A stretch of DNA of 64,000 nucleotides from Candidatus Thorarchaeota archaeon (GCA_016933575.1 JAFGAR010000028.1:32001-96000), one strand, 5' to 3'; counted from the first letter of the stretch, positions 25,031 to 38,220 are shown. Notes: generated from the sequence alone by a model not told the origin. A program made the numbers and translations.

Positions 25031-26053
25031 ATGAATGACACGCTAACTCCTGAACGTAAGAAACGTCGAAAGTCGATCAAAGGTGCGTCACGAATTGAAT
25101 ATGCTGGACCCTTGACAAAAGAGATCATTGAAGATTTTGTGATTGCAGCTCCCAATGTTCAGATTCTCCATATTGAACTTTTGGATGATACGAGTTTCAA
25201 TCTTTCAGACCTACGAGAGTTGAAGGACTTACTTGTACTGAAGGTCAGCGAAGGATATGACCTAAAGCAGGTAAGTCTTGAAGGCATTCAAGAATTTAAT
25301 CTTCTGACTGGATTAGAGATCAATATCAATTCTGCAGATACTATTGAGGAGATTGATCTAGCACCGTTGAAAAATCACCCGGAACTTACTGTACTAACGA
25401 TTGCAGGTCAGGTAAGAACTCTAAAAGCAATCGATACACTAAATACAATTCCCAAATTGAACTCCATAGGTCTCTATTCTCTTGATATTTCTGAACTGGA
25501 CCTCTCCTCGCTCGGAGGATGCAGCAAACTAGAGAGTGTATATCTTGGAGACCTTGGTTCAGAGAAGCCAACGAAACCGTATAGAATAATACTCCCAAAG
25601 GAGGCTCCAATCAAGATTCTTGAAATATCAGAATGTTATAGTGATGACCTTGTTGTAGAGGTTGATTATTCATTTCTTAAAGGAAAGGTTGCTCTAGATA
25701 GTTTCAGTGTTGTCAACTGTAATCTCACATCATTTGATTTGGGCAATCTCGCATCCCTTAAGAGAATTGGCCATCTTGATTTGTCCCAGAATAAAATCAC
25801 GCATCTTGACATAACACCAATTTTGGATATACCGATGTTTACAGAGGAAGCATTGGGTGAATCACCATTTGCTACAGATCAAGATGTAATTATTCAAATC
25901 TCCAAGAACAAGGAGCAAGAGATAGATGAGATTCTAAAACGACCTGATAAAATCGTAGAAGATCATGATGGCTCATTTGCTATCAACTACGAGTTTGGTC
26001 ATCAGTGGTTGAGAAAACTCCTTGAATCATACACAATTGAATGGATTGAATAG
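25031..26053 (+). CDS. Leucine-rich repeat protein
   Basis: Repeated DL..L...L..L.L; LDLSQNKITHLDI. Confidence 0.8.
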   Translation: MNDTLTPERKKRRKSIKGASRIEYAGPLTKEIIEDFVIAAPNVQILHIELLDDTSFNLSDLRELKDLLVLKVSEGYDLKQVSLEGIQEFNLLTGLEININSADTIEEIDLAPLKNHPELTVLTIAGQVRTLKAIDTLNTIPKLNSIGLYSLDISELDLSSLGGCSKLESVYLGDLGSEKPTKPYRIILPKEAPIKILEISECYSDDLVVEVDYSFLKGKVALDSFSVVNCNLTSFDLGNLASLKRIGHLDLSQNKITHLDITPILDIPMFTEEALGESPFATDQDVIIQISKNKEQEIDEILKRPDKIVEDHDGSFAINYEFGHQWLRKLLESYTIEWIE

Positions 26054-27218: not shown

Positions 27219-27647
27219 ATGGTAATAATGACGACAGTAGGATATTTCGAGGGAACTGATCCATCCCTATTATCAAAAATAAGCGCAAATGGATTCTGCA
27301 CGGTTCCGCTAGCAAATGAATGGGATAGCCATGGAAAGATAGCTTCACACTTGGAACCAGGTGAGGTTCATCTAATAATTGGTTATCTACATAAGTTGAT
27401 GCCACCTAAGGGAACTCCTAAGACAACAATAGAGAAGACTATGCCAGTGTCAGCTGATGTCTATCGTGGACTAAGACCAATAGATCTCCTCTATCCCGCA
27501 AAAGTCTATGGTATACCTGTATTGGTAGTTATACCCAAAGAATTCCATAAGAAGGCTAAAGATGCTCTAGAAGAGGCAGCCGAGTTTGTTACAATCGTTG
27601 AACCTGAACATCTTGAGAAGAAAGTGAGAGAGATTCTAGGATTCTAA
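27219..27647 (+). CDS. Hypothetical alpha/beta protein
   Basis: Clean ORF with globular composition. Confidence 0.7.
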   Translation: MVIMTTVGYFEGTDPSLLSKISANGFCTVPLANEWDSHGKIASHLEPGEVHLIIGYLHKLMPPKGTPKTTIEKTMPVSADVYRGLRPIDLLYPAKVYGIPVLVVIPKEFHKKAKDALEEAAEFVTIVEPEHLEKKVREILGF

Positions 27648-27742: not shown

Positions 27743-28924
27743 GTGAGTAGATTGTTGGTGGGATTGATACAGTCAATATTACTACTTCAAGCCACATTTA
27801 GCATATTTGGCATCTTAGGTGCTTTATTCGTATTCTTGCTTCTGATCATAATAATACTTGCTGCATATGCTATTAGAGAGCAAATTCCAGATCCAATAGC
27901 AAAACCACCAGTACAGCAAGCATCAACAAAGAAGTCTATCCATGATGTGCTTGAAGACAGAAGCGTAGAACGAGTGAAACCGATTGATATTGTCGCGAGG
28001 AAACCTAGACCTAGTGATGTTCCATTTGCGAGTATGGCCAGATCAACTTCGACTGCACAACACCCAATTCCTGGAGTTTCGAGTGCATTATCATCAGTCA
28101 AGGAATCAGATAGTAGCCACGAGGGGCAGGTCAAAGCTCTCAGGGGAGGCGAATTCATTGGTTCAAGGATGCGTTACAAGGTTAAGGTTCTGAATGATTC
28201 ACCATTTACGATAACAGATGTAACTATCTACCTCCTTTCCTATCCCCATCAAGCACTTAAGCTGGTGGGTGATGATGACGAATTCTTTGCTAAGATTGAG
28301 CCAGGAGGTTTTAGAAGTCCGTGTTTTGATTTTATGCCAACACAGGACTGTGTGAGAGGAGATATTGTTGCAGGGATATCATTCATGGATTCGAGAGGAC
28401 GAGCGCATACGCTCACAACGAAACCATTCGTAATAAGGTCCGTTTGTGATCTCCTGATTCCAGAGCAGCTATCACCCGAAGATTTCACATTGAAATTAAA
28501 GAAACTTGAACATGGAGAGATTACACTCAAAGTTGAGGAATGGACACCTGAGGAGATGTATGAGAAGGCACTGAAAATAGTAGATGATTCGAATTTCTTC
28601 GAGATTGAAAGTAACATCGAGAATAGTGAAGGAGTCATCTTCGGTAGGATACAAGGTTCTGCCAAAGGAAAGTATACTGGTAAAAGTGTTGGAGTGGAGA
28701 TCACTATTACTGGACCGACTAGGAAGAAAGGAGCATCTTGCAACATCAAGGTCTCAGGAGAAGATGAAGCTATGATACTTCCAGCAATTGATGATCTTAG
28801 AGAGCGACTGAGTGCCTGGCTATGTCCAATGTGTGGTTCGCCTCTCACCTTGGCAAATGTTGAAGACCTCAAGAAAGGAAAGACAATTTGCTGTCCATTC
28901 TGTTCAGTAACAATTGGACGCTAG
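27743..28924 (+). CDS. TM-anchored coat-appendage-like (beta-sandwich plus platform) Zn-ribbon protein, paralog 1
   Basis: N-terminal TM, low-complexity linker, conserved core starting RGGEFIG, ends CPMC...CPFC.VTIGR. Confidence 0.75.
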   Translation: MSRLLVGLIQSILLLQATFSIFGILGALFVFLLLIIIILAAYAIREQIPDPIAKPPVQQASTKKSIHDVLEDRSVERVKPIDIVARKPRPSDVPFASMARSTSTAQHPIPGVSSALSSVKESDSSHEGQVKALRGGEFIGSRMRYKVKVLNDSPFTITDVTIYLLSYPHQALKLVGDDDEFFAKIEPGGFRSPCFDFMPTQDCVRGDIVAGISFMDSRGRAHTLTTKPFVIRSVCDLLIPEQLSPEDFTLKLKKLEHGEITLKVEEWTPEEMYEKALKIVDDSNFFEIESNIENSEGVIFGRIQGSAKGKYTGKSVGVEITITGPTRKKGASCNIKVSGEDEAMILPAIDDLRERLSAWLCPMCGSPLTLANVEDLKKGKTICCPFCSVTIGR

Positions 28925-28998
28925 AATGACAACCTTTTTCCATTCATCAGCCTCAAACCTTATCTTTGTGGCCAGTTAGAAACAAATCATAATCATCA

Positions 28999-30045
28999 GT
29001 GGACGGAGGTAACCATTTGGATTCAATGCTTGCGCTTCAGATTATTTATACTATTGAACAACTAGTAGCTACTGGAGGAATCCTTGTCTTTCTTATTGCA
29101 ATCATTATTTGGGTGGCAATGAGCGCAAGGGATGCAGAAGAAATTGATTTCTTCAAAGATCGAAAAAACATGCAAGCTTCTAAAGCAACTACATTATCCG
29201 AATCATCTGCATCTGATAACGAGAAACCAAGTTCAGATATTAATGTAGTACGAGTACTGAGAGGTGGAGCATTCATTGGAAACAGAATACGCTTCAAGGT
29301 CAAGGTAGCTAACGAATCAGAGTATACAATTACAGACATTATGGTGCACTTGGTTTCCTATCCCAGAGATGCTTTGAGATTCGATGGAGATGATGATGCC
29401 ATTCACTTCTCTAAAATAGAACCGGGCGGATTCAGAAGTCCATCTTTTGAGTTTATACCGACCCAGGATTGTGTCAGGGGGGAAATTGTAGCTGGTGTTA
29501 CATATATTGATACCAGAGGAAAAGCGCACACTCAGACAACAAGACCCTATGAGATACGAGCTGTATGTGACCTTTTAATTCCAGAAGAGATTACGCCTGA
29601 GGATTTCCAACAGACTGTTCAAAGTCTACATAGTGGAGAACTTGTTGTAAGTGTTGATGATTGGACACCACAGGAGATGTATGAGAAAGCACTTGTCATC
29701 TTAGAGCAAGCAAACTTCAGTGGTGTTTCTGCGGGTGTCGACTCAGAGGAAGATGTCGTAACAGCAAAGATTGAAGGTTGGGCACGAGGTAAATATACAG
29801 ACAAAGGTGTTGGAGTTCAACTTCTCATCTCTGGTAGATCTGGTGAAAAGGGAGCATGTTGTACAATTAGAATATTAGGTGAAGACTCAGCACTTGTTCT
29901 TCCAGCTATAGAAGATCTGAGAAACCGTCTAACCACATGGTTATGTCCAAAATGCAGGAGTACGCTACAGGTTGAAAGTGTGAAACAACTCAGAAAGGGA
30001 GGCGTTGTCGAATGTCCCTATTGTGGAGTAACTATTGGGAGATAG
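28999..30045 (+). CDS. TM-anchored appendage-like Zn-ribbon protein, paralog 2
   Basis: Same architecture; CPKC...CPYC. Confidence 0.75.
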   Translation: MDGGNHLDSMLALQIIYTIEQLVATGGILVFLIAIIIWVAMSARDAEEIDFFKDRKNMQASKATTLSESSASDNEKPSSDINVVRVLRGGAFIGNRIRFKVKVANESEYTITDIMVHLVSYPRDALRFDGDDDAIHFSKIEPGGFRSPSFEFIPTQDCVRGEIVAGVTYIDTRGKAHTQTTRPYEIRAVCDLLIPEEITPEDFQQTVQSLHSGELVVSVDDWTPQEMYEKALVILEQANFSGVSAGVDSEEDVVTAKIEGWARGKYTDKGVGVQLLISGRSGEKGACCTIRILGEDSALVLPAIEDLRNRLTTWLCPKCRSTLQVESVKQLRKGGVVECPYCGVTIGR

Positions 30046-30094
30046 TTTGCTAATATTCATAGCATTATTAGGGAGTAATGATTAGCTCTGAGCT

Positions 30095-31009
30095 ATGCAG
30101 GTGATTCTTGATGTATATGTTATTGGTATTCTATTTGCTCTAGCAGCTACCATGTTCTTTGGTATCACAAATATAATCTACAAAAAAATGAGTGATGACA
30201 TAAGCGTCATGGACATTACTTTTTCCCGTATCTGGGTCAGTCTACCGCTTGCATACATATTTGCTATAGCATCATCAGACTCGTTACAAATCGCGATTCC
30301 GTCGGAATCGATGTTCCCTCTGGCAATCTCAATGATACTTGGGATCTTACTTGGCGATACTATGTATTTCCTAAGCCAAGAGAGAATTGGTGTTAGTCGA
30401 GCTTTCCCAATTTCTATGAGTTATCCGTTGCTGGTATATTTGATAACCGCTTACTTCCTTGAAGAACCTGTAATCATCCAGAGGGTACTCGGGGCCATCA
30501 TTGTTGTCATGGGAGTGGGATTAATTGCTAGAGCGGAGTATAAAGAAAGAAGTGAAGATATCGGCAAATGGAGTCCCAAAGATAGAACGATTGGATTTGC
30601 TTTAGCATTCTTTACAATGGTTGCTTGGGCGCTCAGTGATTCCATCTTTCAATTTGGTTTGATAAATGTAGATCCAGCAGATGCTAATTTCTACCGTATA
30701 CTTGTAGCTTCAATAATCTTAGTACCTTTCTTCTTCCTATCATTCAAGGGGAAAAGACATCTACCAAATAGAAGGATTATTGCATTTGCTCTGATGACAG
30801 GACTTGTGGGAATAGGTCTTAGCTTAATTGCATATAGCTACGCTGTGAAATACATTGGAGCAACTATTACAGCTGTCATGATTGCATCAGCTCCTGTTCT
30901 AACTGCACCATTATCAGCTCTTTATTTAGGTGAAGATGTGAACAAGATTGTAGCTTTTGGAACAATACTGACTATACTAGGTGTGATTCTAGTCATCGCC
31001 ATCATATAG
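30095..31009 (+). CDS. DMT/EamA family transporter
   Basis: About 10 TM in two repeats; IGVSRA.PI, FLEE/YLGE motifs. Confidence 0.9.
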   Translation: MQVILDVYVIGILFALAATMFFGITNIIYKKMSDDISVMDITFSRIWVSLPLAYIFAIASSDSLQIAIPSESMFPLAISMILGILLGDTMYFLSQERIGVSRAFPISMSYPLLVYLITAYFLEEPVIIQRVLGAIIVVMGVGLIARAEYKERSEDIGKWSPKDRTIGFALAFFTMVAWALSDSIFQFGLINVDPADANFYRILVASIILVPFFFLSFKGKRHLPNRRIIAFALMTGLVGIGLSLIAYSYAVKYIGATITAVMIASAPVLTAPLSALYLGEDVNKIVAFGTILTILGVILVIAII

Positions 31010-31075
31010 AAATCAGGAAAACTCTATATCCCCTCCAGTCAACGGGGATGTGTGAAAGATTGACCAGTTGGTAGG

Positions 31076-32167
31076 ATGTTTCTTATGCTACAAGTTGATA
31101 TTTGGACTCTACCTGTCACTATTATCGCAATAATGTTGATCTGCGTCTGTTGTGGGATTGCAGTCAGTAAAGGGAGCCCAAAAGCTAAATTAGATGATGC
31201 ACGAACTCTCCCATATTATCTTCGAGAGCAGATGGAAAAGACTGCACCAATGAAGGAGCAGGCAGCATATTACACCCCTGCAACAATGAAACGTGAAAAA
31301 AGAGTTATTCCTGGAGTATCAAGATCGATTTCATCCGTTCCACCACATGAAAGAAGAGAAACGCGCAATGTGAAAGCACTACGAGGGGGCGAGTTCATTG
31401 GCAATCGAATGCGTTTCAAGGTCAAGGTCCTGAATGAGACTCTCTATACAATAACAGATGTGAGAGTCTTTCTCATATCTTACCCATCCAAAGCCCTTAA
31501 GATTGACAGTGAGGATGATGACGTCTTCTTTCCCAAGATCGAACCAAATGGATTCAGGAGCCCCGCTTTTGATTTCTTACCAACCCAAGATTGTGTGAAA
31601 GGTGAGATTATAGCAGGAGTATCCTATATCGATGAGAGGGGTATTGCTCACACCCTGACGACTAAACCATTCATCATTCGTTCTGTCTGCGACCTTCTCA
31701 TCCCAGACAAGATTTCTCCGGATGAATTCGAACTCAAACTAAAAAAACATGAATGTGGTGAGATTGTAGTAAAGGTTCAAGAATGGACTGCAGCAGAGAT
31801 GTTCGAAAAATCTCTTAGAATCATTGAAGATGCCAATTTCTATGAAGTTGAGAGTAATAGTGACGACCATGATGGAATATTTAGTGCTACAATATCAGGA
31901 CAGGCGAAGGGGAAGTATACTGGAAAGAGTATTGGAGTAAAGATTCTCATGTCAGGTCCAGTCAATCAGAAAGGAGCAAGCTGCACAATTCAAGTCACCG
32001 GCGAGGATCAAGCTATGATTCTTCCAGCAATTGATGATTTAAGGGAGCGCCTCAATGCTTGGCTATGTCCAATGTGTGGTTCGCCCTTAACAAAAGATAA
32101 TGTTGAGGATTTGAAGGCGGGTAGGGTTATTGTTTGTCCGTTCTGTAATGTTTCGATAGGAAGATGA
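31076..32167 (+). CDS. TM-anchored appendage-like Zn-ribbon protein, paralog 3
   Basis: Same architecture. Confidence 0.75.
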   Translation: MFLMLQVDIWTLPVTIIAIMLICVCCGIAVSKGSPKAKLDDARTLPYYLREQMEKTAPMKEQAAYYTPATMKREKRVIPGVSRSISSVPPHERRETRNVKALRGGEFIGNRMRFKVKVLNETLYTITDVRVFLISYPSKALKIDSEDDDVFFPKIEPNGFRSPAFDFLPTQDCVKGEIIAGVSYIDERGIAHTLTTKPFIIRSVCDLLIPDKISPDEFELKLKKHECGEIVVKVQEWTAAEMFEKSLRIIEDANFYEVESNSDDHDGIFSATISGQAKGKYTGKSIGVKILMSGPVNQKGASCTIQVTGEDQAMILPAIDDLRERLNAWLCPMCGSPLTKDNVEDLKAGRVIVCPFCNVSIGR

Positions 32168-32198
32168 CAGTGTACCTCAGAGAAGCCGAAAGAAGTGA

Positions 32199-33290
32199 AT
32201 GATATTGGCTTATGATTCATCAGTAATTGATATTGTCATTGGGGGAGTAGCATGCATTATCTACATTTTCTACTATTTATGTAAAGAGGCAGATAGTGAC
32301 ATAAAAAGTCTAGAAGAGGTAGAAAGAGGGAGAAGAGAGAGACTGTCATATCAAGAACGAATTGTAGGAAGAGATGGATTACCAGTAGGTTACGCAAAAG
32401 GAATACCTCAAGCATCTTCGAAGAAACCAATTCCTGGACTAGCTCAGGCAATCTCAGAAGTAAGTAGAGAGCCTGCAAAACGAGAGGAGGTAGTAAAAGC
32501 ACTCAGAGGTGGAGAGTTCATCGGGAATAGAATGAGATTCAAAGTCAAAGTGTTGAATGATTCGCCATACGTAATATCTGATGTTACTGTCTATCTCATA
32601 TCATATCCAAAAGATGCATTGCGATTAGCTAACGGGAAGAAGGATATCCAATTTTCCAAAATAGAACCAAATGGATTCAGAAGTCCATCATTCGATTTCT
32701 TGCCTACTCAAGACTGCGTAATGGGAGAAATAATTGCTGGTGTATCATATATCGATATGACAGGGAAGCCTCATACCCTCACTACAAAGCCATTTATCAT
32801 ACGATCTGTATGTGACCTACTAATTCCCGAAAAGATTGGATCTAAAGAATTCGAGATAAAACTACAACAGCTTAACTGTGGTGAGGTGATAGTAAAAGTC
32901 GACGAGTGGTCACCAGAAGAGATGTTTGAAAAAGCTCTACGAATTGTTAATGATGCTAATTTCTTCGAAGTCAGTAGTCAATTGGAAGTTGTTGATAACT
33001 TTGTACATGCAAAAATAACAGGACTTGCAAAAGGCAAATACACAGGAAAGAATATTGCAGTGGTGCTTCTTATATCAGGTCGATCGGAACAGAAAGGAGC
33101 AAGCTGTACAATAAGGGTGTCAGGAGAAGACCATGCAATGATTCTCCCTGCTATTGACGATCTTAGAGAAAGATTGAGTGCCTGGTTATGTCCAATGTGT
33201 TCGAGTCCTCTCACTCTAGCTAACGTTGAGAACCTCAAAGATGGGAAAGCAGTTCAATGTCCATTCTGTGGGATTACAATTGGGCGTTGA
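32199..33290 (+). CDS. TM-anchored appendage-like Zn-ribbon protein, paralog 4
   Basis: Same architecture. Confidence 0.75.
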   Translation: MILAYDSSVIDIVIGGVACIIYIFYYLCKEADSDIKSLEEVERGRRERLSYQERIVGRDGLPVGYAKGIPQASSKKPIPGLAQAISEVSREPAKREEVVKALRGGEFIGNRMRFKVKVLNDSPYVISDVTVYLISYPKDALRLANGKKDIQFSKIEPNGFRSPSFDFLPTQDCVMGEIIAGVSYIDMTGKPHTLTTKPFIIRSVCDLLIPEKIGSKEFEIKLQQLNCGEVIVKVDEWSPEEMFEKALRIVNDANFFEVSSQLEVVDNFVHAKITGLAKGKYTGKNIAVVLLISGRSEQKGASCTIRVSGEDHAMILPAIDDLRERLSAWLCPMCSSPLTLANVENLKDGKAVQCPFCGITIGR

Positions 33291-33382: not shown

Positions 33383-36217
33383 ATGTTGAAAACAATATCA
33401 AGAATGAGAGTTTTTCCTGATGAAGTAAGATTCAATTCATCTTGGAGACCGTACCAAGCTCGGGTCTTGAGAGAACTTGAAGATTACCTCGATGATAATC
33501 GGCTTCATGTGGTAGCTGCTCCAGGGTCTGGGAAGACAGTATTGGGGATTGAAGTTGTCAGGCGATTAAACGGACCAACACTTGTTCTTGCACCAACTCT
33601 GGCTATTCGTGACCAGTGGATTCATCGATTTATCGAGCTATTCCTTCCAAAAGGTAGTAAACGTCCTGATTGGATTTCATCGGATCTAACAGAACCAAGT
33701 TTTTTCACCGTATCAACATATCAATCACTCCACGCAATAATGTCTAGAAAGAAAGGTGGAGTGGTGGAAACAGAGGAAGATGAAGAACTTCAGGATGAAG
33801 AACCCGAAGAGAAAGAAGAGCTTGAAATCGAAGATCGCTACGTACTGTCTTGGTTAGACCAATCCAAGAAAAAGAAAGGAAAGAACAAGAATACGTTAGA
33901 TGAGGAATTAGTAGGAAATTCTGCATCATTTATCGAACAATTAAACTCTCTAGGATTCAAAATTCTTGTTCTCGACGAAGCACATCATCTACGCTCGAAT
34001 TGGTGGAAGAGCCTAAATCAGCTGATTGAAAGATTCGAAGATTTGACTATCCTCTCGTTAACAGCAACACCGCCATTTGATGTCGCAGATTTCGAATGGG
34101 AGAGATATATAGAATTGTGTGGACCAGTGGATGCTCAGATTCCAGTTCCGGAGCTTGTAATAGAAGGAAATCTCTGCCCACATCAGGATTTGATGGTCTT
34201 CTCAACACCTTCCGATGCAGAGGAAAAAGAGATCTCACTGTTCAGGAAAGAGGTGTCTGATTTCATAGATTGGTTAAAACGCAATTCGAAATTCATTGAC
34301 CACATACAGTCACAATCGTGGATTATCGCACCAGAGAAGCATATTGAAGAGATCTTGGCAGAACCAGATTATTATTCTAGTATGTTGATTTTTCTAAGAG
34401 AATCGGGTGTGAAAATTCCCAGAGACGCAATTAGAATAGTTTCAGACAAGAGATCGAATCTTCCCAGTCTCTCGTTGGAATGGCTTGAAATATTACTCAC
34501 CAGAGTACTATATCCTCCAGGCGTTGATAGACCCAAGCATCCTGATTTTCTCGTTGAAGTTCAAGATGAATTGAAACGAATAGGAGCAATAGAACTACGA
34601 CGAGTTCAACTTAGAAATATCAAGGCAATTGAGAAAATACTGAAGCGAAGTATTTCGAAACTACAGAACATTGTTGAAATTGCAGAACTAGAAGATGAAT
34701 CGCTTCACGATGACCTTAGAATGGTTGTCCTCACGGATTACATTAGAAGCGAATCTATGCCCCGTGATGGCTCGAACAAGACACCTCTAAATAAGATTGG
34801 CGTAGTGCCGATATTCGAGGCTATCAGAAGGTCTAGTATTAATTCTAAACTTGGAATCCTCTGTGGCACGCTTGTAGTCATTCCTAGTAAATCGAGAGAA
34901 CTTCTTCTTGATTGTACACGGCGTCTAGGGATACAGAACGAGGAGGTTAGACTTGAGGTTTTGCCGCATGATGATTCATTTCTCTCTGTACAAGTTCCTG
35001 ATGATGAAAAACACAAGTTGGTAAGGTCGATTACAGACCTATTCATAGTTGGCGGCATAAACATCCTTGTAGGGACCAAGTCACTCTTAGGTGAGGGTTG
35101 GGACGCCCCATCAATCAATGCGCTCGTGATTGCCAGTTTTGTCGGATCTTATATGCTATCTAACCAAATGAGAGGCAGAGCTATCAGGAGTGAGCGAGGT
35201 AATCCAGGCAAGACTGCTAATATCTGGCATCTTGTATGTGTTGAACCAGATAGTTATGATGGCGGCGAGGACTACCTTACTATGGTAAGGAGATTCAAAG
35301 CCTTTGTAGGAGTCTCATATTTTGAACCAGTCATTGAAAATGGACTTGGAAGGTTAATCTATGAAAAACCACCGCTCAAAAAGGGGACTCTATCCAATCT
35401 GAATGAACGAATGGTTAAGAGTGCTAAGAATCGACTTAAGATGAGCTCTGACTGGGATAAAGCTCTTCGAAGAGGAGAAGATGGAATAAGACTGGTAGAA
35501 GACATTCAGACCAAGAGGGTCTCTCTACCCAGAGGATTCGTATTCTGGAATACAATTGCTTACCTATTCTGGGAAGCAACATTTCTATTCATGTTTATGC
35601 TACTTTATAATTTTGATGCATGGATTAGAATAGCGGCTGCCTCCGAATCAACTATCGCATTTTTGTGGACAGGATTGTTTTCGCTTTGTCTCTGCTTAGT
35701 AGTAACAACACCATTATTTCTCAAAGCGCTTTGGTTGACAATCAGACATGGACCAATTGCATCAAGTATGAAAGCAATTAGCACAGCGCTCCTGAAGACA
35801 CTCTGCAAAATGGGTGAGATCAGGACAGATTTCATTAACATGCGAGTTGTCGCAGATAAGGGAGATATGGGAGAGGTATTCTGTCACCTTGAGGGAGGCA
35901 AGCCTAGAGAGAAGGCAGTCTTTCTCAGGTCGCTTCAGGAAATCCTGGATCCAATAGAAAATCCCAGATACATTCTCGTGCGAAAGTCGAATCTACTAAT
36001 TATCCCGAGAAAAGACTATCACACAGTACCCTCAGTGATAGCAGCAAAGAAAGGGAATGCAGAGTATTTCGCTGAGATGTGGTCAAGATATGTAGGGAAA
36101 ATGAACCTAGTATATACTCGGAATAGAGAGGGAAGAATCGAACTACTCAAGGCGAGAAATAAATCACTCTCTGCGGCGTTTAGACCTAAGTCAGAGAGAA
36201 TTACAAGGTGGAAATGA
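33383..36217 (+). CDS. SF2 DEAH-box helicase-like ATPase with two C-terminal TM helices
   Basis: WRPYQ, APGSGKT, DEAHH, LTATP, GEGWD, QMRGRAIR; hydrophobic hairpin in the C-terminal third. Confidence 0.85.
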   Translation: MLKTISRMRVFPDEVRFNSSWRPYQARVLRELEDYLDDNRLHVVAAPGSGKTVLGIEVVRRLNGPTLVLAPTLAIRDQWIHRFIELFLPKGSKRPDWISSDLTEPSFFTVSTYQSLHAIMSRKKGGVVETEEDEELQDEEPEEKEELEIEDRYVLSWLDQSKKKKGKNKNTLDEELVGNSASFIEQLNSLGFKILVLDEAHHLRSNWWKSLNQLIERFEDLTILSLTATPPFDVADFEWERYIELCGPVDAQIPVPELVIEGNLCPHQDLMVFSTPSDAEEKEISLFRKEVSDFIDWLKRNSKFIDHIQSQSWIIAPEKHIEEILAEPDYYSSMLIFLRESGVKIPRDAIRIVSDKRSNLPSLSLEWLEILLTRVLYPPGVDRPKHPDFLVEVQDELKRIGAIELRRVQLRNIKAIEKILKRSISKLQNIVEIAELEDESLHDDLRMVVLTDYIRSESMPRDGSNKTPLNKIGVVPIFEAIRRSSINSKLGILCGTLVVIPSKSRELLLDCTRRLGIQNEEVRLEVLPHDDSFLSVQVPDDEKHKLVRSITDLFIVGGINILVGTKSLLGEGWDAPSINALVIASFVGSYMLSNQMRGRAIRSERGNPGKTANIWHLVCVEPDSYDGGEDYLTMVRRFKAFVGVSYFEPVIENGLGRLIYEKPPLKKGTLSNLNERMVKSAKNRLKMSSDWDKALRRGEDGIRLVEDIQTKRVSLPRGFVFWNTIAYLFWEATFLFMFMLLYNFDAWIRIAAASESTIAFLWTGLFSLCLCLVVTTPLFLKALWLTIRHGPIASSMKAISTALLKTLCKMGEIRTDFINMRVVADKGDMGEVFCHLEGGKPREKAVFLRSLQEILDPIENPRYILVRKSNLLIIPRKDYHTVPSVIAAKKGNAEYFAEMWSRYVGKMNLVYTRNREGRIELLKARNKSLSAAFRPKSERITRWK

Positions 36218-36301: not shown

Positions 36302-36985
36302 TTACCCACGTATCATACCTGGTGATGGAGGGCCAAATCGAATTCTAGCCATCTGTTTTGTCTTATCTTTTTCACTTGCTAGACGTCTCTTCTCTCGTTC
36401 GTATTCTGTTGCACATGTAGACTCAAGCTGGAATTTTGTCTGACCAAAAGTGATTGCATCTTTACTGATGGACTCCATCAGATAGGCTGGGACAATAAGA
36501 TCGCAATCAGGCTGGGCACGTATCTTTTCCAACAATTCCTCGAAGAAACCGCCTCCAATTAAGAACCACATTGTACTCTCAGTATCAAACCAGAGATCAA
36601 TAATATTTCCAACCTTAAACCCATCAGAATCTACGAGGTCTATCTTCCCAAGTTTAGAGAATTTTATGTTTGTTTCGCCTAAGACTCCAGGGTCAATCGT
36701 TTTCAGAAGTGAAGATTTCTTGACTTTAAGATAGACTTTGTCTGAAATGCTATCAATGTCTGAAATAGCACACACTGGATCAATGTCAGCTCGTGCATGA
36801 ATCGACTCCAGTAGTTCTTCAACAATTCCACCGCCTAAGACAAAATAATTCAATTCAATCTTATCGTGTGATATGTCAAAGATGGCATCAATGATTTCAC
36901 CAACTTTTTCCCCATTATTATCAACGACATCTTTGTTTCTAATTTCGCTGTATTTCATATTACAACATTGAATCATAATAACCAC
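36302..36985 (-). CDS. Tandem PRC-barrel domain protein
   Basis: Two copies of S....K.VVD..G.KVG.IID..FD; true start probably MKYSEI. Confidence 0.85.
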   Translation of the reverse strand: MVIMIQCCNMKYSEIRNKDVVDNNGEKVGEIIDAIFDISHDKIELNYFVLGGGIVEELLESIHARADIDPVCAISDIDSISDKVYLKVKKSSLLKTIDPGVLGETNIKFSKLGKIDLVDSDGFKVGNIIDLWFDTESTMWFLIGGGFFEELLEKIRAQPDCDLIVPAYLMESISKDAITFGQTKFQLESTCATEYEREKRRLASEKDKTKQMARIRFGPPSPGMIRG

Positions 36986-37070
36986 ATTCTTGGTTCACAA
37001 TAGTTAATATATAAGCTTTCTTGTGAATGATTTGCAATACATCATAGTAGCCGTACATAAATCTAACTAG

Positions 37071-37105
37071 AAGAAGAAAGAGGAGATTGAGCCCCCAAGG
37101 GGCTC
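37071..37105 (-). terminator. Hairpin plus pyrimidine tract after 37124-37426
   Basis: GAGCCCC-NNN-GGGGCTC stem followed on the minus strand by CTCCTCTTTCTTCTT. Confidence 0.65.
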
Positions 37106-37123
37106 TATCGACGTTGGTACTAA

Positions 37124-37426
37124 TTAATAGACTTCACGAGGACTTTCTCTGAGACGATCAGGTAGTTGACCACCTTCGCCCAAGACCTCAAGCTCATGAT
37201 CGCGACCATATCGGCCACCATCGTTGCACAAGAATCCGGACTTGGTGATTCCACGTGCCTGACGCTCAGCAGCACGTCTAGCTATCATACCCATTCCAGA
37301 TGGGACTGTCATCACGAGCTTCTTCTGACTCTCATCAATTGCTAGAAGAATAGCATCATCTGCAGCATTTCGTGTAGTCTCAAAGAATTGAGATGTTGTT
37401 TGATTAAACTCGAGGTAGATTGGCAT
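37124..37426 (-). CDS. 100-aa protein, possible single gelsolin-like domain
   Basis: GGAGG RBS; ILLAIDE..KKLVMTVP.G...ARRAAERQARGI...ELEVLGEG pattern. Confidence 0.5.
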   Translation of the reverse strand: MPIYLEFNQTTSQFFETTRNAADDAILLAIDESQKKLVMTVPSGMGMIARRAAERQARGITKSGFLCNDGGRYGRDHELEVLGEGGQLPDRLRESPREVY

Positions 37427-37509
37427 TTGGAACCTAGTCCTCCAATGTCTAGTTTAGCATAGTTCTTTGTTTGGTGCATATTAATAAATCTCGGGCGAGT
37501 TCCTAGCCT

Positions 37510-38220
37510 CTAACTCTTAAGAAGATGGGCTGTTCCGCAATGTGCACAGACAACAGCATCATCAAATTCACCCGGTAGTGGAAGTGGAGCACCACAATTC
37601 TGACATTTCAGTTCTTTTAATTGTGAACGTTCTTGGGGAGTAAGTCTGATTTTAAAAACGCGTTCAGCAACATCTTGGATCGTCTTGCCAACCTTTTGAG
37701 CAGCTCTCGCAATCGCACTGCGCTCAGGATTTGTAAGTGAACCGAGTCCTACAGCTTGGAAGAAACTATCAATCGCTTTACCAATCTTTCCAAACATCGA
37801 TCCCGCTTTCCATGCTATCACATCAGAACAATAGAGTTGCAGTATCTCTGAATCGGGATGACCAGGTATTTCATATCCTCGTTCCCAATCAATTCTATTT
37901 GATGTTGGAGGAGCCAGTTCCGCTCCACAATCTGGACATATTAATTTCCAATCAGGTTTCTTGAAGAAGCCCTTTCTAATTTTTCGTTCACCGACATCAT
38001 ACCAGCATCTCTTATGTGCAATCTTTTCACAAGAGGGACAGGAGAAGAGATAGTACATATCAGGCCTTACTTTAGCCTTCCCACCAGTGTGAACTCTGAG
38101 ATATGCCAAGTCCTTAGTTGTCCAATTGAGTAAGAAACTACCACATATGAAGCAGGTTCTTCCATCAAGTTTGTTCATTTTATCTGGCGTGATTCTCAAG
38201 GTTGTATGCACCATGTGCAT
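37510..38220 (-). CDS. C4HC3 (PHD/RINGv-like) finger protein with a C-terminal Zn ribbon
   Basis: CFIC...CPSC...HKRC...CPDC; CQNC...CAHC. Confidence 0.7.
   Translation of the reverse strand: MHMVHTTLRITPDKMNKLDGRTCFICGSFLLNWTTKDLAYLRVHTGGKAKVRPDMYYLFSCPSCEKIAHKRCWYDVGERKIRKGFFKKPDWKLICPDCGAELAPPTSNRIDWERGYEIPGHPDSEILQLYCSDVIAWKAGSMFGKIGKAIDSFFQAVGLGSLTNPERSAIARAAQKVGKTIQDVAERVFKIRLTPQERSQLKELKCQNCGAPLPLPGEFDDAVVCAHCGTAHLLKS

Follow-up and report, generated by a model that had tools for sequence, protein, structure and literature searches.

A group of four paralogous genes for membrane-anchored proteins was analyzed in a 64,000-nt window (i.e., the whole stretch of DNA considered here, GCA_016933575.1 JAFGAR010000028.1:32001-96000) from the 85.5% complete genome of a Candidatus Thorarchaeota archaeon. 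The region of study spans positions 27743-33290, and coordinates are given as positions in the window unless a contig is named. The conserved core of the four proteins (copies 1 to 4, Table 1) is confidently predicted to fold as an appendage ("ear") of the adaptin/COPI type: an immunoglobulin-like (Ig-like) beta-sandwich is followed by an alpha/beta platform, both subdomains are packed against each other in the same way, and beta-COP gives the best whole-ear match. On balance, the genes probably encode membrane-tethered ear-like proteins which stem from a mobile Asgard module, belong to an old array linked to a gene of the EamA family and serve a docking role. Gene structure, paralogy, predicted fold, predicted topology, breadth of the family and synteny are results of the analysis; homology to the eukaryotic ears, a docking function and the identity of partners are inferred.

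Eukaryotic vesicle coats use adaptor ears as interaction hubs, and where these ears came from matters for the question of how membrane trafficking arose. The ear fold as such is not new here, because archaeal ears have already been published, including ribbon-bearing and transmembrane-linked forms. New are the architecture class, in which an ear plus zinc ribbon is built into membrane proteins, whether these are minimal anchors or many different surface proteins with the unit as their cytoplasmic end, and the old multi-paralog array retained in Thorarchaeota.

Predicted fold of the core

The four proteins have a common architecture of N-terminal transmembrane anchor, disordered hinge, conserved core of ~230 aa and C4 zinc ribbon. 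Full-length identity among them is 50-57%. Over the C-terminal ~270 residues, which comprise core and ribbon, the identity to copy 3 is 68% for copy 1, 56% for copy 2 and 68% for copy 4, copy 2 being the most divergent of the four. The original prediction had described a CxxC-CxxC ribbon ending in IGR, and both the cysteine pairs (CxxC...CxxC) and the terminal IGR were found in all four paralogs.

Full-length copy 3 was modelled with AlphaFold2 using an alignment of 40 sequences. The model (predicted local distance difference test, pLDDT, 78) consists of a transmembrane helix, a disordered hinge, a beta-sandwich, an alpha/beta domain and a ribbon. Its top 14 hits in Foldseek were AP-2 and COPI appendages, with a high root-mean-square deviation (RMSD) to these ears due to the uncertain linker between the domains. 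This model was superseded by a model of the core only, for which a deeper alignment of 51 sequences from the whole family was used. The core-only model reached a pLDDT of 92.6 and a predicted template modelling score of 0.74, and it has no low-confidence segments. In a Foldseek search against the PDB, its top 15 hits were all appendages of AP-2 (alpha or beta2) or COPI (beta or gamma), with E-values between 5e-10 (alpha ear) and 6e-7. The best match over the whole ear was beta-COP (9qpq_H; E-value 1e-9, TM-score 0.64/0.70, RMSD 3.7 Å over 242 columns, 16% identity). Across the Foldseek alignments, identity to appendages was 11-16%. TRAP-beta and other single Ig domains ranked below the appendages and covered ~110 columns.

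VIA-align, which is independent of the Foldseek prefilter, was run against 48,161 representative chains. The alpha ear ranked first (Z 15.9 over 210 residues), and the beta2 ear and gamma-COP reached Z 13.9 and Z 13.7, respectively. The sandwich (model residues 5-116, ~10 predicted beta-strands) was aligned with its counterparts in the ears of alpha, beta2, gamma-COP and beta-COP; it further matched the GAE domains of GGA2 (Z 9.8) and gamma2-adaptin (Z 9.1). The platform (model residues 121-233) follows directly after the sandwich, and its best single-domain match was the platform-only AP-4 beta ear 2mj7 (Z 13.2, 2.3 Å over 112 residues), the likeness to which is limited to this subdomain. Generic Ig domains scored Z ≤ 12.1 over ~100 residues. 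An assignment of the platform to the stand-alone KA1/helix-grip lipid-binding domains is not supported, since a sandwich always precedes the platform and KA1 domains scored Z 9.2-9.7. Although the platform shares the beta-alpha-beta4-alpha topology with the KA1 domains of Chk1, MARK and SAD kinases and with the AMPK alpha C-terminal domain, those domains fall below the adaptin platform in score, lack a sandwich in front and are kinase-associated. The sandwich and alpha/beta platform originally proposed were thus recovered with AlphaFold2, Foldseek and VIA-align, and beta-COP, the ear chosen by eye, is the best whole-ear match.

The ears of COPI and AP-2 used for comparison (9qpq_H, 5a1u, 1r4x/1pzd, 1w80/2vj0, 1e42/3h1z) have the same order of subdomains, i.e., an Ig-like sandwich and then a beta-alpha-beta4-alpha platform. 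As predicted for the proteins studied here, they have a flexible hinge upstream and are cytoplasmic, and the relative orientation of the subdomains is also the same in beta-COP. In contrast to these ears, the window proteins are tethered by a transmembrane helix without any alpha-solenoid trunk and have a C4 zinc ribbon added.

On the sequence level, the profile of the 51 family sequences was searched against 177,635 PDB sequences, and beta-COP ranked first with an E-value of 0.37. HMMER aligned the family segment vCDLLkP..eEF...NF, which forms the junction between sandwich and platform, to beta-COP 826-900 (IMDYIQPATCTDAEF); the match corroborates the structural one. Five pairings of core segments with beta-COP had been proposed by eye. 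One of them was recovered in this alignment at the E-value given. A strand motif of the type KVKV.N.. is considered a generic sandwich feature, because it also aligns to the C-domain of beta-arrestin (E-value 0.42). A PDB match to 8ga7 ('THR5', E-value 6e-5) was discarded as spurious, because its score adds up three weak alignments (independent E-values 7-35) with a protein of repetitive, helical make-up.

Several observations weigh against the assignment to the appendages or against the docking role. All structural evidence consists of predicted models, and the whole-ear TM-scores in Foldseek were ~0.5 for the alpha and beta2 ears and ~0.4 for gamma-COP. Each subdomain taken alone is a common fold, Ig/MG-like for the first and KA1/START/helix-grip-like for the second. 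Searching Pfam with the four proteins (hmmscan) gave no appendage family (Alpha_adaptinC2, Coatamer_beta_C, Coatomer_b_Cpla and related models) and nothing on the core at an E-value ≤ 1; PF02883, PF14806 and PF07718 had no match to module loci anywhere in the genome; and the E-value of the beta-COP sequence match is not significant alone. Neither a ligand pocket nor a partner was identified, and genes of the endosomal sorting complex required for transport (ESCRT) were not found in the neighbourhood of module genes in this incomplete genome.

A rival reading is convergence, in which an Ig-like sandwich and a helix-grip domain (KA1/START/TBP-like) would resemble an ear without common descent and the platform would bind acidic lipids or sense the membrane rather than dock proteins. 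We consider this unlikely. Consistent with convergence, domain 1 alone matches unrelated Ig/MG domains (Z 10-12), domain 2 alone matches KA1, the AMPK C-terminal domain and START (Z 9-10), similarity to appendages is not significant in sequence, and basic residues are conserved on the first strands (core R9, R17, R19, K21 and K23). However, among solved proteins both domains in this order are matched only by appendage-type ears, including the GAE plus platform of BBS9, and such ears occupy the top 15 Foldseek ranks. Furthermore, the whole ear superposes on beta-COP with a TM-score of 0.70, the platform scores clearly higher with the AP-4 beta ear than with KA1 (Z 13.2 vs 9.7), and the top PDB sequence match is beta-COP at the equivalent position. 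Other archaeal appendage proteins have a published HHpred probability of 98 against the beta-COP and beta2 ears (PMC10936438).

Membrane tether and spread of the module

Each of the four paralogs has one N-terminal hydrophobic segment. Lysine or arginine residues (K/R) number 0-1 on the N-terminal side of this segment and 4-6 within the following 25 residues. A transmembrane helix upstream of the module is present in 100 of 131 family representatives (median distance 63 residues). In these 100 proteins, the mean number of K/R is 0.39 in the 15 residues before the helix vs 3.58 in the 15 residues after it; an excess of K/R after the helix was counted in 85 proteins vs 8 with an excess before it (Wilcoxon p 9e-15). 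In soluble members, the module is fused to cytoplasmic-type domains, namely HEAT, TPR, WD40, PCI/E3-UFM1-like winged helices and EAP30. Based on the positive-inside K/R bias, the Cys4 zinc ribbon and these fusion partners, the core is predicted to be cytoplasmic. This agrees with the claim that a cytoplasmic core is tethered by a transmembrane helix: in the window proteins, helix and hinge take the place at which adaptins carry the alpha-solenoid trunk.

If the hydrophobic N-terminus were a cleaved signal peptide, the module would be an extracellular Ig-like surface domain. The sandwich does resemble many extracellular Ig-like, MG, CARDB and pilin domains, and one family member has a weak DUF11 match. 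Yet no basic n-region precedes the hydrophobic segment, the flank after it is rich in K/R, receptor-like members carry the module after the stop-transfer helix that follows their ectodomain, and both the Cys4 zinc ribbon and the fusions to HEAT, TPR, WD40, PCI and EAP30 are cytoplasmic features. An extracellular module is therefore considered very unlikely.

A profile of core plus ribbon was searched against 1.84 billion representatives, which gave 578 representatives at an E-value ≤ 1e-3 and 302 at ≤ 1e-10. They are 96-2867 aa long, mostly with the module at the C-terminal end. What precedes the module in 38 long members are surface-type domains, namely SBBP/PQQ/FG-GAP propellers, Big_13, PKD, beta-helix/NosD, TSP3, LVIVD, DUF2341 or a solute-binding domain. 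Among the 100 representatives with a transmembrane helix, 55 have > 250 residues before the last helix, 38 are polytopic and 10 are minimal anchors like the window genes; no helix is present in 31 of the 131 representatives. The ear-plus-ribbon unit is a conserved, mobile Asgard module, which mostly forms the cytoplasmic tail of membrane proteins, often of those with large surface-type ectodomains, and the minimal transmembrane-anchored proteins are one end of this far larger family. Elsewhere in the family, the unit forms the inner tail of surface-type or polytopic membrane proteins or ends soluble multidomain proteins.

Named members belong to Thorarchaeota, Lokiarchaeota, Helarchaeota and Njordarchaeales. 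When 121 genomes of the phylum were sampled, matches were present in 39, including 16 of 17 genomes of the window's family and 13 of 16, 4 of 4 and 2 of 2 genomes of three other families, and absent from many other families. Among the sampled genomes, matches are most numerous in that of the window (10 vs 3-5 in the genus, the number of matches not being an exact copy number). Its matches represent at least six architectures and fall into the four window genes and five other proteins.

In one of these five, E3_UFM1_ligase/PCI-like repeats precede the ear (L007). A soluble protein of 766 aa on contig C138 (L005:10-2310) has two tandem ear-plus-zinc-ribbon units, counted as two matches, after a coiled-coil-like N-terminus. 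On contig C45, a protein of 758 aa (L006:34-2310) has zinc-ribbon repeats (CxxC...H...C) and an acidic linker before the ear plus ribbon. The protein encoded on contig C88 (L010:1033-3126, minus strand) is receptor-like, with a Laminin_G_3 ectodomain (E-value 6e-15), a Thr-rich stalk, a transmembrane helix, KKK, a Pro-rich linker and a divergent ear plus ribbon. Its open frame reaches further upstream (987 aa), hence the true start may fall outside the listed open reading frame (ORF). A soluble protein of 420 aa on contig C5 (L009:1399-2661, minus strand) has HEAT-like repeats followed by an ear core without ribbon. Its HEAT_2 match (E-value 1e-4) is below the Pfam cut-off, and the layout is that of a miniature solenoid plus ear. 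The ESM Atlas includes a 50-member Thorarchaeota cluster of the same shape, with HEAT_2 in 80%, and matches lie in open frames of 408-420 aa in genomes of the same genus.

Solenoid-plus-ear forms, as in the adaptins, thus exist within the module family (HEAT_2 plus ear in L009, TPR plus ear in P0241). WD40 plus ear and bPH plus ear are other soluble forms.

Proposed docking role, hinge and ribbon

All four genes are predicted to encode proteins that cross the membrane once, the short N-terminus lying outside and the C-terminus in the cytoplasm. The two-lobed ear module would be carried by a disordered hinge 60-100 residues long and capped by the C4 zinc ribbon, and the window genes represent the ectodomain-less form of the family. 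According to the proposed mechanism, the ear may act as a protein-protein docking platform at the inner face of the membrane and may bind a shared cytoplasmic partner or short peptide motifs. Docking of this kind could link membrane proteins with machinery for sorting or remodelling. The best candidate for such machinery is ESCRT, due to a fusion of the module to EAP30 and to published Asgard fusions of Vps28/Vps23 with adaptin C-terminal domains. A proto-adaptor which recruits cytoplasmic partners, as first proposed, is plausible.

Eukaryotic ears, e.g., those of AP-2, bind short peptide motifs and partners. The pockets for such motifs are the W840 site of the alpha ear and the Y888/W841 site of the beta2 ear, located on platform and sandwich. 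In the family studied here, candidate positions on the conserved surface of the core are W143, N160-F161 and G185-K186-Y187 (core numbering). The small soluble ear (~270 residues, confidently modelled) offers a handle on whether Asgard membrane proteins couple to ESCRT or to other machinery.

The fusion to EAP30/Vps36 was observed in representative P0242, from a cluster including Candidatus Njordarchaeum guaymaensis, in which the module (residues 375-601) is directly followed by the EAP30/Vps36 domain (residues 609-738, E-value 1.5e-9). It is the sole direct physical link to ESCRT seen in this analysis. In the window's genome, EAP30 and Snf7 genes are located on contig C131, and a second Snf7 gene lies 150 kb from the module gene on C5. 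A VPS28 model had no match in this genome and none in control genomes either, so this negative carries no weight. Neither a coat context nor mu/sigma heterotetramer partners were seen.

That appendage-like domains have been noted in Asgard archaea, as the original prediction stated, is borne out by three studies. Liu et al. 2020/2021 (bioRxiv 10.1101/2020.10.19.343400) described Asgard fusions of Vps28/Vps23, an E3 UFM1-ligase-like region and an adaptin/COPI C-terminal domain. This architecture is matched by L007 and by the representatives P0167 and P0189, whereas the window proteins lack Vps28, a UFM1-ligase-like region and any other soluble domain at the N-terminus. Eme et al. 2023 (PMC10307638) found appendage Pfam domains in Asgard genomes, sparsely distributed and without fusions among themselves. 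Makarova et al. 2024 (mBio 15:e00335-24, PMC10936438) reported appendage regions composed of IG and TBP domains in several archaeal ESCRT systems, including arCOG15284 in Meth_adaptin ESCRT loci and Asgard fusions of Vps28-C, longin and appendage. Among their examples, WP_013898571.1 of Methanosalsum zhilinae has a Zn ribbon, and WP_013898578.1 combines GOLD, a transmembrane helix and an appendage. The appendage was placed in the last archaeal common ancestor and such proteins were interpreted as interaction hubs for protein sorting. Proteins of the arCOG15284 type and those of the present family both comprise IG plus TBP forms as well as Zn-ribbon and transmembrane-linked versions, the likeness being one of architecture. 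The former were found via Vps4/ESCRT neighbourhoods, whereas in this genome neither the window cluster nor any other module gene lies close to ESCRT genes. Neither a transmembrane-anchored, EamA-linked Thorarchaeota array nor a use as tail of surface proteins is mentioned in the main text or Table S3 of Makarova et al. (PMC10936438), and no protein of the present Thorarchaeota family is among those in Table S3.

The hinge had been described as divergent. This holds for the linker as a whole, which is poorly conserved, but not for a motif [KR][KR]-P-I-P-G-V-[SAT] located ~20-35 residues before the core. Conservation of the motif residues in 40 homologs is 80-97% (P 93%, I 97%, G 97%). It is present in copies 1, 3 and 4 and missing from copy 2. 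As a family-wide trait the motif was ruled out, since beyond the close subfamily it occurs in just 3 of 135 representatives. Speculatively, the motif could be a ligand of the ear, either in cis or between paralogs; in the first full-length model of copy 3 it was undocked.

A more far-reaching proposal combines these features, and we regard it as rather improbable. The ear would have begun as, or would have been widely used as, a cargo-borne cytoplasmic tail, so that in Thorarchaeota many surface receptors, polytopic membrane proteins and minimal anchors would each bring an adaptor ear of their own. These ears would recruit one common machinery for sorting or remodelling, either ESCRT or an unknown coat, with PIPGV acting as an ear-binding peptide which cross-links the paralogs into a membrane-proximal lattice. 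The system would then represent a functioning archaeal precursor of adaptor-mediated cargo sorting, and only later would solenoid-trunk adaptins have captured the ear.

Weak zinc-ribbon matches at the C-terminus were the sole signal in Pfam and NCBIfam, none being obtained on the core. When a profile of the ribbon only was searched, generic C4 ribbons were matched (LysW with an E-value of 0.001, RpoP/Rpo12 and rubredoxin knuckles). Judged by this search, the ribbon is of a generic C4 type, similar to LysW and RpoP. Weak matches to PF16988 (E-values 0.004-0.26) had pointed to a finger of the Vps36 NZF-N type, which binds Vps28. This candidate was rejected, since the ribbon-only profile did not match any Vps36 entry and the spacing of the cysteine pairs is 19 residues; in NZF fingers the spacing is shorter.

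The C-terminal I-G-R is invariant in 40 of 40 close homologs and is not retained in distant family members. This suggests a subfamily-specific signal for C-terminal recognition or processing.

The EamA-linked array

The four genes had been described as tandem paralogs. All four ORFs are present on the same strand with the architecture claimed, but the arrangement is not strictly tandem: copies 2 and 3 flank an EamA gene, which makes the layout two copies, EamA, two copies (Table 1). In other Thorarchaeota, the syntenic order is PEPCK, AFOR, DUF1847, EamA, 1-2 copies, sometimes a ResIII helicase, and a PRC-barrel gene (three annotated loci). Among 36 loci having copies ≥ 65% identical to copy 3, ~30 have EamA adjacent to 1 to 4 (possibly 5) same-strand copies, and a frequent order is copy, EamA, copy, copy.

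A maximum-likelihood tree was calculated for 61 cores. The four copies of the window were not grouped together; instead, each was closer to a copy from another genome. Copy 3 was placed within a clade whose members are the first copies downstream of EamA (Shimodaira-Hasegawa-like approximate likelihood ratio test, SH-aLRT, 95), and copy 2 was grouped with copies from two genomes which are not EamA-linked (SH-aLRT 99). The position relative to EamA clusters on the tree, with 15 label changes vs 31 expected, a value matched in 0 of 200 shuffles. Since the cores are grouped by position and not by genome, the array is old and has been retained. The description of the ear as "expanded fourfold" is accordingly misleading: the copies are anciently diverged positional paralogs and not a recent expansion. 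Their retention suggests that the paralogs are not redundant.

The linkage could also mean that the EamA/DMT transporter encoded next to the four proteins has them as accessory or regulatory subunits, which would act in its tethering, sorting or turnover. Same-strand adjacency in the three annotated loci and in ~30 of 36 loci would fit such a role, as would the gaps of just 31-74 nt among the window genes. Nevertheless, the adjacency may be inherited gene order, because synteny with these relatives extends over the entire region (PEPCK, AFOR, DUF1847, PRC barrel and others). Distant family members have no EamA neighbour, the module occurs on > 100 other membrane proteins, and among ten polytopic members searched for a fusion of EamA and module, no Pfam match to EamA or any other transporter was found. 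A subunit role is thus not likely, and a general docking module within an old array is preferred.

Table 1. Positions of the four module genes, their parts and neighbouring genes in the window.
Feature	Position	Strand	Description
Upstream ORF	25031-26053	+	340 aa; leucine-rich-repeat-like by eye; conserved, without Pfam match
Upstream ORF	27219-27647	+	142 aa; conserved, without Pfam match
Copy 1	27743-28924	+	393 aa; long N-terminal hydrophobic anchor ~3-49, PIPGV-motif hinge, IGR end
Copy 1, core and ribbon	28118-28921	+	from residue 126
Copy 1, terminal I-G-R	28913-28921	+
Copy 2	28999-30045	+	348 aa; transmembrane anchor ~22-40; hinge short, acidic/Ser-rich, without PIPGV motif
Copy 2, core and ribbon	29236-30042	+	from residue 80
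Copy 2, terminal I-G-R	30034-30042	+
EamA/DMT-family transporter gene	30095-31009	+	304 aa; Pfam EamA E-value 3.5e-41
Copy 3 (P0003)	31076-32167	+	363 aa; reference protein for modelling
Copy 3, transmembrane helix	31100-31165	+	residues 9-30; 0 K/R on the N-side, 6 K/R in the next 25 residues
Copy 3, hinge motif	31298-31339	+	residues 75-88, KRVIPGVSRSISSV; within an otherwise disordered linker
Copy 3, beta-sandwich (Ig-like) subdomain	31370-31705	+	residues 99-210; predicted model
Copy 3, platform subdomain	31718-32056	+	residues 215-327; predicted N-terminal helix, then beta-alpha-beta4-alpha (TBP/helix-grip-like)
Copy 3, C4 zinc ribbon and C-terminal IGR	32057-32164	+	CPMC...CPFC
Copy 3, terminal I-G-R	32156-32164	+
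Copy 4	32199-33290	+	363 aa; transmembrane anchor ~9-27; PIPGL-motif hinge
Copy 4, core and ribbon	32481-33287	+	from residue 95
Copy 4, terminal I-G-R	33279-33287	+
ResIII/DEAD-type helicase	33383-36217	+	944 aa; directly downstream of copy 4
PRC-barrel protein, ~100-aa ORF, double-zinc-ribbon/RING-like protein	36302-38220	-	downstream of the cluster

The starts of copies 1 and 3 are uncertain and may lie a few codons downstream, because the gene calls recorded in the database for this contig are 388 aa and 360 aa, respectively.

Regarding the neighbouring genes, unnamed ORFs without recorded Pfam match are also found upstream in the syntenic loci. The C-terminal third of the helicase contains strongly hydrophobic stretches which look like transmembrane segments and are unusual in a helicase; a counterpart of 929 aa is encoded at the same position in another Thorarchaeota genome. 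The trio of minus-strand genes downstream of the cluster is conserved in all syntenic loci examined.

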